A stretch of DNA of 64,000 bases from contig OX597815.1 in NCBI GenBank assembly GCA_951406725.2, forward strand, positions 117,862,001 to 117,926,000, read 5' to 3'. Positions 14,587 to 44,421 of the stretch are shown here, one piece after another. The stretch is from Octopus vulgaris (Eukaryota). Within the stretch, counting starts at the first letter, position 1; each line of letters opens with the position of its first letter. A program made the translations under genes and the position numbers. The notes under the pieces are model-generated. The model had not been told where the DNA came from, did not search any database, and saw only the letters and a program-made list of their open reading frames with translations.

Positions 14587-15710
14587 TAATAAACACGTTT
14601 CATTTCAAAAACTGGCGATAATCACGTCTTCATCAGTACAATAACAGAACGACAGATTTCGCCAACACCGAATTTTTAAAAAAATAAATTAAATTAAATA
14701 TGAGAAAAATAAATAAGCGTTTGATAACATGTTATTTTTTTTTTCTTTCTGTCAGACTTGCAAGTAATTAAAGTGAAAATTTCATAATTTGTATTAATTT
14801 CGTAACAATCAAATTGTTGAAGTATATTAAATATAATTTGAGGGATGTGTGTTTACAGCTTTGAACTATAATATAATATAACATATTATAATATAATATA
14901 ATATAATATAATATAATATAATATAATGTGTGTGTGTATGTGTGTATGTGTTTATTCTCATGAGCTTGGTTAGTTGTGTGGAGAAATATTGGTCTCTAAT
15001 TACCTAACAACGTGGTTTTATGGGGTTTCTAAGGTGCAATTATCCATTCATATGTCGATAAATGCACACACACACACATACACACACTCACACACATACA
15101 TGTACACCAGTTACATGTACGCACGCAATTGATATATCTATAAAGAATCTGTAATCCATCTGAACATGTGTGTGTGTGTACACGTTTATTTACACACAAT
15201 TCAATAAAAAAAAATGGCATAAATATAACGTGTCTCTATCTTTCTGTATTATATTTGTATTTGTCTCTATACGTAACACTAAAACACAAACACACACGCA
15301 CACAGACAGACGAACACATTTACTTATACAGTAATACTGAAAAATCAACATGTGGACTTGTACGGCCATTAGTAGTCTACCCTGCTTGTTACAAAGTATA
15401 GGGTTCACACATCCGGTTGGGGCACCTTGTCTGGGAAAAGTCTTAAGAAGCATTAAAGAGAAAACAGGTCGTATTGTACGTTAAAATTCGCTCCCCCACC
15501 GTCCTTTTTTCTCCATGATCCTTGAGGGATGAAAGATAAAGTCTATTGAATAGATAAATATGTTATATATAAGATCAATATATAATATATATATAACATA
15601 TTTCGAAGTAAATATGATTACGCCTTAATACATTATTGTTATTTATTATACATTAATAATGTTGTATATCTGTAATAGAAGAAATCATAATTGCATACGG
15701 CTAATATATG

Positions 15711-21848: not shown

Positions 21849-22365
21849 ATCATCATCATCATCATCATCGTTTAGCGTCCGCTTTCCATGCTAGCATGGG
21901 TTGGACGGGTCAACTGGGGTCTGTGAAGCTGGAAGGCTTCGTCAGGCCCAATCAGATCTGGCAGTGTTTCTACGGCTGGATGCCCTTCCTAACGCCAACC
22001 ACTCCGCGAGTGTAGTGGGTGTTTTTTACGTGCCACCTGCACAGGTGCCAGACAGAGCTGGCGAACGGCCACGAACGGATGGTGCTTTTACGTGTCACCG
22101 GCACGGGGCCAGGCAATGCTGGCAACGGACACGAACGGATGGTGCTTTTACGTGCCACCGACACGGGGCCAGACAGAGCTGGCAACCGGCCACGAACGGA
22201 CGGTGCTTTTACGTGTCACCGGCACGGGGGCCAGCCGAGGCTGGCAACGGACGCGAACGGATGGTGCTTTTACGTGCCACCGACACGGTTGCCAGACAGA
22301 GCTGGCAAACGGCCACGAGCGGACGGTGCTTTTACGTGTCACCGGCACGGGGGCCAGCCGAGGCT
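21849..22365 (-). mobile_element. RTE-related non-autonomous retroelement with (GAT)n tail and internal GC-rich minisatellite
   Basis: Minus strand has GGTTGGCGTTAGGAAGGGCATCCAGCCGTAGAAA (resembles an RTE/Expander UTR motif) and ends GCGGACGCTAAACGATGATGATG. Confidence 0.6.
22020..22365. repeat. Minisatellite of about 60 bp, roughly 5.5 units
   Basis: GGTGCTTTTACGTG recurs at 22081, 22141, 22202, 22263 and 22326. Confidence 0.95.
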
Positions 22366-22405
22366 GTATATGTATGTATGTATGTAGAGAGAGAGGAAGA
22401 GATAG

Positions 22406-26410: not shown

Positions 26411-26985
26411 ATCGTAGGAGCACTACGTCGGTCACGACGACGAGGGTCCCAGCCGATACGATCAACGGAACAGCTGGCTCGTGAAATTAACGTGTAAGTG
26501 GCTGAGCACTCCACTGCCCTAACCACTAAGCTACGCGCCTTCATTATCATCGTGGCACTCGGTCGGTTACGACGACGAGGGTTCCAGTTGATCCGATCAA
26601 CGGAACAGCTGGCTCGTGAAATTAACGTGTAAGTGGCTGAGCATTCCACTGCACTGCCCTAACCACTAAGCTACGCGCCTTCACTATCATCGTGGCACTC
26701 GGTCGGTTACGACGACGAGGGTTCCAGTTGATCCGATCAACGGAACAGCTGGCTCGTGAAATTAACATGCAAGTGGCTGAGAACTCTCAGGGAGATTCAG
26801 CGTGATACAAAGTGTGACACGGCTGGCCCTTTGAAATACAGGTACCACTCATTTTTACCAGCTGAGTGGACTAGAGGAACGTGAAATAAAGTGTTTTGCT
26901 CAAGGACGCAACGCGTCGCCGGGGATTGAACTCATGACCTTAAGATCGTGAGCCGAATGCTCTAACCACTAAGCCACGTGTCTTC
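26411..26985 (-). mobile_element. SINE family C full copy (26689-26985) plus two tandem deleted mini-copies of about 140 bp
   Basis: Near-identical repeat units start at 26411, 26549 and 26689. Confidence 0.85.
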
Positions 26986-39297: not shown

Positions 39298-39507
39298 CAA
39301 ATTTTGGCACAAGGCCAGTAATTTCGAGGAAGTGGGTAAGTCGATTGCATCAACGCCCAGTGCTCAACTGGTACTTATTTTATCGGCCACGAAAGGGGTG
39401 AAACGCAAAGTCGACCTCAGCGGAATTTGAACTCGGAACATGAAGACGGACGAAATGCCGCTAAGCATTTTTGCTCGGCGTGTTAACGATTCTGGCAGCT
39501 CGCCGCC
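39298..39507 (-). mobile_element. SINE family B
   Basis: Family core and tail. Confidence 0.85.
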
Positions 39508-39549
<42 letters not shown>

Positions 39550-39588: not shown

Positions 39589-39627
<39 letters not shown>

Positions 39628-39777
39628 GGTTTAAGTAATTGAGATTCAAGTGAATTCTAATGAATTCACATGAATATGATCCTTAACTAGGATGCACCGG
39701 AAATCTATATGGTGTTAACCATACGACAAGTGGGGTGATTACAAATAGGAAAAAGGCAACAAGAATGGATTAAAATA

Positions 39778-39861
39778 TCGGTACAATTGTTTCGTACGAG
39801 GACATCTTTAATAAGCTACAAAAAATGCAGTAAATATAGATGGCTCGTACTCGTCAGCCGA
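39778..39861 (-). ncRNA. Type I hammerhead ribozyme with canonical core
   Basis: Minus strand TCGG-CTGACGA-GTACGAG...CTCGTAC-GAAAC-AATT-GTA-CCGA: stem I TCGG/CCGA, 7-bp stem II base, short stem III with palindromic loop, GUA cleavage triplet. Confidence 0.8.
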
Positions 39862-40189
39862 AAAAACATCAGAGATTCCCAAACATCAAAAGGGGTAGAT
39901 ACAAATGAGGGTGTGAGTTTAACTGTATTGAAGAAAGTTCGATCCCTGGAGATCCGATGAAAGGTCTTGAACTTACAGAATTTGTACATGTCCATATATA
40001 GCTCATAGTGAATTGTTAATCAAGTTATGTGAAGAAATTTTGGATACAGTCATGCGAAATTTCTGAGAATCCGAGTAAGAAGCAAAGTGACTGTCATATC
40101 GTGTAGAGGAACAGATTGTTATTGAAATTTACAAGAATCACAGATAAGTTCGATTCCTGGAGATCCGATGAATATATATATATTCTTTT

Positions 40190-40572
40190 ATTCTTTTATT
40201 TGTTTCACTCATTTGATTGCGGTCATGCTGGGGCACCACCTTGAAGGGTTTTAGTCGAACAAATCGATCCCGGGACTTATTTCTTAAGCCTGCTACTTAT
40301 TCCATTGGCTCCTCTTTTGCCGAACCGGTAAGTTACGGGGGCGTAAACATCCCAACACCGGTTGTGAAGCGTTGGTGGGGGAGATAAACACATACACACA
40401 TACACGAATACACACACACACACACACATACACAACTTCTTTCAGTTTCCGTCAACCAAATCCACCCACAAGGCTTTGGTTGACTGGAGGCTTTAATAGA
40501 AGGCACTTGCCCAAGGTCCCACACAATGGAATTGAACCTACAACCATGTGGTTGGGAAGTAATCTTCTTAAC
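40190..40572 (-). mobile_element. SINE family A
   Basis: Colinear with other A copies. Confidence 0.85.
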
Positions 40573-42511: not shown

Positions 42512-42959
42512 CCCTGGTTGTGGACGGTCTGACTCTCTCATCCTTCTTTTCTCTCTCTCTCTCTCACACACCTCTTTGTCTTTCCCTCTCTCCATCCGTC
42601 CATCTCTACTTTCGTTTTCGTTTAAATCGCTTATTTCCCGTGTCCATGGAGCGACGCGTGTATTATTCTCGAAACAGCATCAAACCACAAAACAAAAAAA
42701 CTCATTGCACCCCCCTCACCCAGCAGATTCCAGTAAGTTATTCCACCAGTATTGTATAGCAATGTGTTATACAACCAGTATAGTAAGTCTAGAAGTAAGT
42801 CAAAGATTGTGAGTAGAGTTCTATAATGTTGGACTAAACCACGAAGCACAAACTAAACACAATGGTTTAGTAACATGTGCAATTATTTTAGCGTGTAGTA
42901 CACTAGGTTAAAAACAAAGTGCAGTTCTATCGACGCATGTCTGCTCTCCTTTAGAAAGA

Positions 42960-43792
42960 GTTGTAGAAGTAGTAGTTGTAATAGTAATACTAGAAATAGT
43001 AGCAGTACTACTACTACTAATAGTAGTAGTAGTAGTAGTAGCAGCAACAGCAACACTACTAGTAGTAGTAGCAACAGCAGCAACACTGGTAGTAGTAATA
43101 GTTGTAGTAATAGTAGTAGTAGGAGTAGCAGCAGCAACACTGGTAGTAGTAGTGTTAGTAGTAGTAGTAGCAACAACAGCAACACTAGTTGTAGTAGTAG
43201 TAGTTGTCGTAGTAGTAGCAGCAACACTGGTAGTAGTAGTGTTAGTAGTAGTAGTAGCAACAACAGCAACACTAGTTGTAGTAGTAGTAGTAGCAGCAAC
43301 ACTGGTAGTAGTAGTAGTAGTTGTAGTAATAGTAGTAGTAGCAGCAGCAGCAACACTGGTAGTAGTAGTAGTGTTAGTAGTAGTAGTGGCAACAACAGCA
43401 ACACTGGTTGTAGTAGTAGTAGCAGCAGCAACACTGGTAGTAGTAGTAGTAGTGTTAGTAGTAGTAGTAGCAACAACAGCAACACTAGTTGTAGTAGTAG
43501 TAGTTGCAGCAACATTGGTAGTAGTAGTGGTAGTGGTAGTAGTAGTAGTTGTAGCAGCAGCATTGGTAGTAGTAGTGGTAGTGGTTGTAGTAGTAGCAGC
43601 AGCAGTAACAACACTGGTAGTAGTAGTAGTAGCAGCAGCAATGCTGGTAGTAGTAGTAGTAGTAGTAGTAGTAGTAATAGTAGTAGTTGTAGCAGCAACA
43701 CTGGTAGTAGTAGTGTTGGTAGTAGTAGTGTTAGTAGTAGTAGTAGCAACAACAGCAACATTAGTAGTAGTAGTAGTAGTGGTAGTAGTTGC
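42960..43792. repeat. Complex (TAG/CAG/CAA)n satellite with higher-order units
   Basis: Recurring blocks GCAACAACAGCAACACTAGTTG and GCAGCAACACTGG separated by (TAG)n. Confidence 0.95.
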
Positions 43793-43999
43793 ATTCGACC
43801 GAATTCAACCTTTTCTGGAGCACCCCTATGCTAAACATGGCCATCCTATCTTTTATGTGAGACATTGTGTATCTAGGACTACATTATCTAATGTGACCAA
43901 TCTGTCCTCTTCTGTTTTTTCTTCTTACGATGACAGGTGTGAAGTGAGAATCATTCGGCTGCTCTTCATAGTAAGTAGAGCATCCGCATAGGGGTTTCC

Positions 44000-44000
44000 T

Positions 44001-44052
<52 letters not shown>

Positions 44053-44078
44053 TTTAGTAGTAGTAGTAGTAGTAGTGA

Positions 44079-44110
<32 letters not shown>

Positions 44111-44150
44111 GTGATGGTAGTAGTAGTAGTAGTAGTTGTAGTAGTAGTGA

Positions 44151-44189
<39 letters not shown>

Positions 44190-44287
44190 CAGCAGCAGCA
44201 ATAGTAGTGTAGTAGTAGTAGTAGTAATATTAGTAGTAGTAGTAGTAGTAGTAGCAGCAGCAGCAATAGTAGTAGTTGTAGTAGTAA

Positions 44288-44373
<86 letters not shown>

Positions 44374-44421
44374 TAGTAGTTGCAGTAGTAGTAGTAGTAG
44401 TAGTAGTAGTAGCAGCAGCAG
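44000..44421. repeat. (TAG)n/(CAG)n microsatellite
   Basis: Directly visible. Confidence 0.97.

Follow-up and report, generated by a model that had tools for sequence, protein, structure and literature searches.

What is a hammerhead ribozyme motif doing between two (TA)n tracts in an octopus genome, and to what kind of element does it belong? The motif lies on the minus strand at 39778..39861 of the window, by which we mean the whole 64,000-nt stretch of Octopus vulgaris DNA that was analysed. The reading that we favour, to which we assign a probability of roughly 0.85, is that the hammerhead sits at the 3' end (the pseudo-LTR, pLTR) of a protein-coding Penelope-like element (PLE) with Hydra-clade motifs, and that what lies at this locus is a copy of 546 nt, truncated at its 5' end and tailed, which likely originated by (TA)n-primed reverse transcription starting 155 nt past the hammerhead and stopping early. 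A hammerhead at the end of a truncated protein-coding PLE is a known arrangement, and the window locus alone is ordinary transposon debris. What is new here is a long, structured, hexamer-bearing arm together with a long tail, in the known setting of a Hydra-type PLE end. The parts of the motif are as follows.

39778..39861, minus strand: type I hammerhead motif with a 57-nt stem II arm (strand read, fold, descriptor scan and compensatory changes)
39861-39858, minus strand: 5' strand of stem I, TCGG (strand read)
39857-39851, minus strand: core CUGACGA (strand read)
39794..39850, minus strand: extended stem II arm made up of a 7-bp proximal helix, a middle helix, an internal loop and a distal hairpin at about 39816-39830 (MFE structure and compensatory changes)
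39793-39790, minus strand: core GAAA (strand read)
39790-39783, minus strand: palindrome ACAATTGT, which makes up helix III and loop III and a predicted 8-bp dimer helix (self-duplex and cluster comparison)
39781-39778, minus strand: 3' strand of stem I, CCGA (strand read)

The core elements CUGANGA, GAAA and NUH are all present and are surrounded by helices I, II and III with helix I open, as in a type I hammerhead. A GUA triplet lies directly 3' of the palindrome, and the predicted cut falls between 39782 and 39781 on the minus strand. The initial annotation had described the core nucleotides, three stems, an unusually long stem II and a 2-bp stem III around AATT within a palindrome, and all of these are found as described; the first seven and last seven bases of the 57-nt arm are paired (39850-39844 with 39800-39794) and helix III consists of 2 bp closed by a 4-nt palindromic tetraloop. 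Its label of a canonical minimal type I hammerhead stands as to type and falls as to the strict minimal form, which has no helix III in the excerpt of Cervera and De la Pena 2014 (PMC4209133). The motif resembles the PLE variants that carry a small palindromic helix III rather than that form.

The least demanding explanation would be a chance match in AT-rich repeat DNA, and its probability is close to nil. What speaks for it is that Rfam, at E<=10, returned no hammerhead family over 6 kb or over 251 nt, so that the Rfam check proposed in the annotation failed. The miss is probably due to the length of the stem II arm, and Rfam probably overlooks many long-armed relatives of the motif as well. 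The other proposed check, an RNAmotif-type search, succeeded: a descriptor set strictly (at least 4 bp in stem I and at least 7 bp in stem II) gave one match in the 64-kb window and none in 300 block-wise dinucleotide shuffles, and the scan found no second strong hammerhead within the window. The loosest version of the descriptor gave two window matches against a shuffle mean of 0.1. The fold z-score of the 90-nt minus strand was -3.3, with none of 200 shuffles equally stable. A looser long-arm hammerhead pattern, with fixed core letters and the outer loop pair fixed as purine/pyrimidine, had 10,464 matches in the genome and 5 in the control. Shuffles, genome controls and the compensatory stem changes among relatives described below together refute the chance reading. 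A weaker hammerhead-like match with 3-bp stems occurs at about 14590-14636 on the minus strand and is within chance expectation.

The insert that carries the motif, and the tracts on either side of it, are made up as follows.

39627..40172, minus strand: probable 5'-truncated 3' end (pLTR region) of a Hydra-type PLE, tail included, inserted in (TA)n (copies 88-99% identical)
39627..39744, minus strand: tail of 118 nt that equals the 5' leader preceding the ORF of full-length copies (copy comparison)
39935..40172, minus strand: a diverged tandem duplication of about 211 bp in the 3' UTR of the element, represented by one unit and a further 27 nt (repeat comparison)
39592..39626, no strand: target tract (AT)17, flanking the insert on its 3' side, where the tail lies (sequence)
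40173..40184, no strand: short tract of (TA)n where the insert is truncated at its 5' end (sequence)

The annotation placed its host segment between two (TA)n tracts, and the 546-nt insert is flanked in this way; it sits in a (TA)n tract between two interspersed repeats. The duplication leaves a 27-nt direct repeat at 39935-39961 and 40146-40172. The tail ends about 55 nt short of the position of the start codon and shortly before a patch of alternating AT. The genome copies that the annotation expected for 39627-40172 were found: 40 were scored from 2107 first-look candidates and, the insert itself apart, they are 88-99% identical to it. Locus L059, whose 3' end shares 96.5% identity with the insert, carries a reverse transcriptase (RT)/endonuclease coding region that is broken in that copy, and the family of the insert is continuous with RT/GIY-YIG ORFs in L051, L053-L055 and L057-L059. 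The upstream flanks of several insert copies encode pieces of RT and a GIY-YIG-type domain.

Several other repeats surround this locus. The flanks at 39300-39509 and 40185-40500 are abundant short interspersed repeats, with 16 and 10 further matches in the window. Tandem repeats of 61/122 bp and of 140 bp with raised GC occupy 22024-22366 and 26420-26786, a (TAG)n/(AGC)-rich minisatellite about 1.4 kb long, whose higher-order units measure 87/129 bp, occupies 42959-44412, and the listed ORFs of the window are mostly repeat-derived frames. On contig C1, at about 6.24-6.25 Mb, loci L017 and L018 show the same insertion with shared flanks twice, 6 kb apart, from either a local duplication or an assembly repeat.

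The annotation assigned the motif to a non-autonomous retroelement and invoked animal retrozymes, that is, the insert would be a retrozyme or SINE-like unit with a life cycle of its own that is moved in trans by a PLE. The retroelement origin is borne out in the form of a PLE 3' end, and the non-autonomous part does not hold. Short hammerhead-bearing copies are indeed abundant, the insert has its internal repeat of about 211 bp, and the excerpt of a recent preprint (bioRxiv 10.64898/2026.07.22.740005) derives animal retrozymes from the pLTRs of PLEs. Non-LTR retrozymes consist of tandem short hammerhead units in a non-coding unit with fixed boundaries. Against this, the repeat of about 211 bp carries no hammerhead and the insert contains a single one, none of the 100 listed motif matches has a same-strand neighbour within 1 kb (read by eye), and the 5' starts at 30 loci including the window copy vary in position or extend into the 3' UTR or ORF, with none of the 29 other loci starting at the 5' end of the window insert against (TA)n. 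Because the insert is colinear with the coding copies, it is best read as the truncated end of an autonomous element and not as a retrozyme. The variable 5' ends, the lack of tandem units and the ORF colinearity largely refute retrozyme membership, which we regard as very unlikely.

The parent element that the favoured reading calls for is present in the genome. A protein search scored 150 of 10,941 candidate places, and these include uninterrupted open frames of 1091 codons in L051 (1072 aa from Met) and 1090 codons in L052, both with RT, and with a GIY-YIG domain at the C-terminus, in a single ORF as judged by motifs. Among the 16 long stretches examined, L051 shows the order partial pLTR, leader, 1072-aa ORF, 1.3-kb 3' UTR, hammerhead and (TA)n, and its unit from cut to cut is 4,722 nt. 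ORFs run from 836 to 1072 aa from Met in the three measured families, with long Asn-rich low-complexity inserts between the RT thumb and the endonuclease. Families B and C are 81% and 59% identical to family A over about 480 N-terminal residues. All three have DKT in place of DKG, YRDD, a CxCX5C linker, and a GIY-YIG core that lacks CCHH and is accompanied by CxxC and CxH near the end; RWR in family A is RWK in B and RWA in C. The dN/dS between families A and B was 0.076 over 480 codons, with dS near saturation.

Apart from YRDD, these features, together with (TA)n insertion and a hammerhead in the terminal repeat, are those of the Hydra clade, and in a by-eye comparison the encoded protein follows Hydra-1_Obim motif by motif. 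The RT and endonuclease assignments rest on motifs and this comparison because no Pfam family reached the cut-off for the three full-length proteins. A homologue search with residues 1-480 gave 27 matches, of which 26 are unnamed at 35-42% identity; the only named one is an Octopus sinensis protein (66% over 42% of the query), and no named Hydra reference was among them. On the strength of these motifs the insert is very probably a fragment of a Hydra-type PLE. The near-identity of Hydra-type copies suggests recent activity.

Several Hydra-type families with long uninterrupted ORFs coexist in the genome (L051:1957-5172, L052, L061, L062, L066, L063, L064). Upstream of a family A fragment, at L026:304-1411, are the decayed remains of an RT from a Hydra-like family that is more distant (about 40% identity). 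Short-armed hammerhead motifs of unrelated sequence adjoin family A/C copies at L006:699-749, L029:2317-2365 and L063:6543-6610, and these probably belong to other PLE families.

Comparison among relatives, which the annotation had named as a check together with stem covariation, shows that compensatory changes preserve both stem I and stem II as well as the palindrome of loop III. A 26-nt pattern of the 3' half of the hammerhead has 618 exact matches in the genome and none in the control. By-eye counts of the 100 listed matches gave a perfect palindrome in 97 (67 with GATC and 30 with AATT) and the G-U version GATT in the remaining 3; the two perfect loops thus differ by a double change that keeps the palindrome. 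The core letters were built into the search patterns and their conservation among the matches is therefore not independent evidence. The long-arm relatives were reduced from 146 loci to 109 distinct motifs and 33 clusters at 88% identity, of which 28 were kept and five dropped (a probable chance match, a motif cut short at its core and three copies with deletions). Stem I has 101 Watson-Crick pairs out of 112 in the 28 clusters, against a permutation mean of 51 and a maximum of 71. The inner loop III pair, which the search left unconstrained, is Watson-Crick in 25 of the 28 and G-U in 3, and loop III is self-complementary in all 28 through 11 different 4-mers.

In 19 aligned, diverged sequences two-sided changes occur in 16 of 26 pairs, in both the proximal and the distal helices of the arm and including the distal hairpin, and none of 500 shuffles reaches 16, although the sequences are related and such shuffle counts are not probabilities. 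The set structure pairs at 87% in the same sequences versus 33-47% in slid-register controls; having been drawn up by hand on the basis of that alignment and the window sequence, it has an advantage over those controls. RNAalifold alone did not recover proximal stem II, and the first stem II pair is often U-U in family D, with 9 of the 19 sequences unpaired there. Taken together, the predicted hammerhead fold is shown to be conserved across families through compensatory changes in stems I and II and in the loop III palindrome, and the self-complementary loop III in every cluster fits dimeric action.

A conserved fold need not be a working ribozyme. The structure could be kept because it binds protein or positions the RT, with catalysis vestigial or dispensable, an explanation that we consider rather unlikely. 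The insertions run past the cut site, as this explanation would have it, and the monomer in the hammerhead fold is predicted to lie 2.3 kcal/mol above the MFE. A recent study by Frangieh et al. 2024 (excerpt of PMC11167929) determined that hammerhead mutants of an Anolis element still gave insertion in vitro and reported no RNA ends at the cut, and minimal PLE hammerheads cut poorly in vitro according to the excerpt of PMC4209133. On the other side, covariation in stem I follows the cleavage register exactly, and the maintenance of self-complementarity in loop III by so many 4-mers is expected if dimeric cleavage is selected. The self-duplex of the palindromic loop ACAAUUGU has a computed energy of -6.4 kcal/mol. 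The ribozyme of this family would quite probably cleave, either as a dimer or with protein. The window copy is another matter: with no cis partner in the window and the monomer fold above the MFE, this solitary copy is likely weakly active or inert by these models, and it is doubtful that it cleaves in vivo.

The 3' ends of the insertions indicate how the favoured element might be copied. Of 164 scored ends, 62 lie +30-49 nt and 49 lie +150-159 nt past the predicted cut. Families A and B have their ends clustered at about +34 and about +155, and the long ends are shorter in families C, D and F. The extra 118 nt of the long end is the leader before the ORF; the window copy has this tail, and many other copies meet (TA)n at the short end (about +34 to +37 nt). 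Both ends coincide with short UA-rich patches. A 5-bp tail hairpin at 39678-39698 on the minus strand is conserved in 14 sequences that represent five families; it shows no two-sided change and is a candidate RT-recognition element.

Back-to-back inverted copies combine a short arm with a long one in 20 of 20 pairs (10 of family A among L067-L096 and 10 of several families among L097-L146). In this count the tail state of L137 and L146 was judged by eye, and three pairs with a spacing of 1.6-3.8 kb were treated as single insertions on the basis of position and orientation only. Among unpaired copies short and long ends are about equally common, and independent ends would therefore give one-tailed pairs in about half of the cases. 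No report of twin priming in PLEs was found in the literature reachable, nor of octopus PLE ribozymes, apart from the excerpt of Craig et al. 2021 (PMC8557442) for Octopus Hydra. In full-length copies the upstream and downstream pLTRs are identical at 91/92, 285/288, 241/242 and 517/536 positions; since the copies are young, these values cannot separate a circular from a tandem linear template.

We propose the following course of events. A parent RNA of the form pLTR-ORF-pLTR would carry two hammerheads 4.7 kb apart, which could pair through the palindromic loop III in an 8-bp intermolecular helix III, perhaps with the protein of the element, and would then cut out a unit-length RNA. Because insertions extend past the cut site, the RNA that is copied must be either uncut at that site or re-joined. 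A nicked (TA)n tract would prime the RT of the element at a start 155 nt past the hammerhead, the UA-rich patches at both start sites being able to anneal to the (TA)n primer, and an early stop of the RT would leave the 546-nt 5'-truncated tailed copy seen here. If priming took place from both nicked strands of the target, with a different start site used by each, the outcome would be back-to-back arms of which one is tailed.

The long stem II arm may have a function of its own, for which two further features are needed.

39807..39812, minus strand: AUUAAA, a putative poly(A)-signal-like hexamer ending 25 nt before the predicted cut
39745..39777, minus strand: U/GU-rich stretch after the cut, up to the short 3' end at about +34 to +37 nt (copy comparison)

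The hexamer is partly unpaired in the predicted fold. Consensus spacing from hexamer to site would place a poly(A) site approximately at the scissile bond. The arm could then be a poly(A) hairpin that partly hides the hexamer of the element, with host 3'-end processing and the ribozyme aimed at nearly the same bond and the fold choosing between tailing, self-cleavage and read-through. This function, which we hold to be less likely than not, is compatible with the favoured reading and adds to it. The genome contains 8,914 matches with A(A/U)UAAA 16-28 nt before the cut, about 85% of the 10,464 unconstrained ones, the gap windows differing slightly so that the hexamer set is not an exact subset. 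A hexamer precedes the cut in 16 of 28 clusters against a shuffle mean of 0.8 and a maximum of 4, but the clusters are related rather than independent and the other 12 lack a canonical hexamer in the scored window. Position 2 of the hexamer alternates between A and T among relatives, which is the pattern of the two main poly(A) signals, and family C keeps the hexamer in another structural register (17 nt versus 22-26 nt). Most clusters also have a U/GU-rich stretch after the cut.

Other observations weigh against a poly(A) function. The final As of the hexamer pair with conserved Us, so that structure alone could account for its conservation, and the hexamer alignment took the best match, which inflates that conservation. 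Further hexamers lie upstream in the 3' UTRs (3 in family A, 9 in B and 1 in C), and their absence from the 600 nt upstream of the arm is not significant (P0 = 0.50, 0.32 and 0.70). Contigs from runs guessed to be RNA (four on L051 and four on the window) speak neither for nor against the idea: among the loose ends listed none clustered and none was a poly(A) end at the cut, and 93 and 14 further ends exist besides those listed. No report of a poly(A) signal in PLE hammerheads was found in the literature reachable, which was mostly outside subscription papers. As a side observation, other hammerhead families with long arms (55-60 nt) have no hexamer in the arm (L035:2807-2950, L063:7729-7872, L100:1938-2081, L107:1491-1634 and L004:2691-2836), and in two of them AAUAAA occurs just past the predicted cut.

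It is conceivable, on this evidence, that a radiation of Hydra-type PLEs, which numbers more than 10,000 motifs in one genome and includes intact coding copies, has incorporated a poly(A) signal into its hammerhead. The stem II arm might then act as a switch that directs host 3'-end processing to the scissile bond and chooses between a tailed mRNA, dimer-triggered cleavage, and a read-through RNA that is copied from the +34 and +155 RT starts into one-tailed inverted insertions. The role of hammerheads in endonuclease-bearing PLEs is described as unclear in the excerpt of PMC8557442, and cleavage was dispensable in vitro in that of PMC11167929. The present family combines intact ORFs, many diverged natural variants, two sharp insertion ends and a candidate poly(A) signal by the cut, and the roles of cleavage, tailing and two-site priming are therefore testable in one system.

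The comparisons that follow hold for excerpts of the papers cited. Animal non-LTR retrozymes (PMC7229834; bioRxiv 10.64898/2026.07.22.740005) likewise have a type I hammerhead with a weak palindromic helix III, and differ from the insert in their tandem hammerhead units and in its direct continuity with a coding element. The hammerheads of metazoan PLEs (PMC4209133) are also of type I with a short helix I and a larger helix II, have a palindrome around helix III and predicted dimeric activity, and are mostly single genomic motifs from truncated PLEs. Unlike their strict minimal form, the motif here keeps a 2-bp helix III with a tetraloop, and it differs further in its 57-nt multi-helix arm with the poly(A)-like hexamer.

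The Poseidon element of Anolis carolinensis (PMC11167929), which belongs to a different clade, has two internal RT start sites in vitro that define a tail, a protein-assisted hammerhead, and uncut RNA as its main template. The two start sites, the optional tail and templates that span the uncut hammerhead would be shared with the octopus family. Poseidon starts inside the ORF without target homology, whereas here the two ends precede the start codon, are separated by about 118 nt and fall at UA-rich patches that resemble the (TA)n target. Because the Poseidon start is non-homologous, the priming microhomology proposed here counts against the favoured reading.

Hydra elements with hammerheads, including one from Octopus, have been published (PMC8557442). 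The clade inserts into (TA)n, and section 11 of that paper lists all of the motifs found here but YRDD. The octopus family shares with it a single ORF with RT and C-terminal GIY-YIG, DKT, RW[K/R], CxCX5C, the lack of CCHH, and CxxC/CxH. It also shares (TA)n targeting, a sense hammerhead near the 3' end with a palindromic helix III, 5' truncation, inverted arms, and the one-sided tail, which had already been described. Hydra-1_Obim comes from Octopus bimaculoides and is listed in the supplement with a different, short-armed hammerhead, which marks the present elements as a separate family. The stem II arm is 51-65 nt here, whereas the Hydra entries in File S2 have about 10-25 nt; the tail measures about 70-120 nt versus 30-40 nt; and the 1072-aa ORF with its Asn-rich inserts gives a unit of about 4.7 kb in a clade whose members are generally, though not strictly, below 3 kb.
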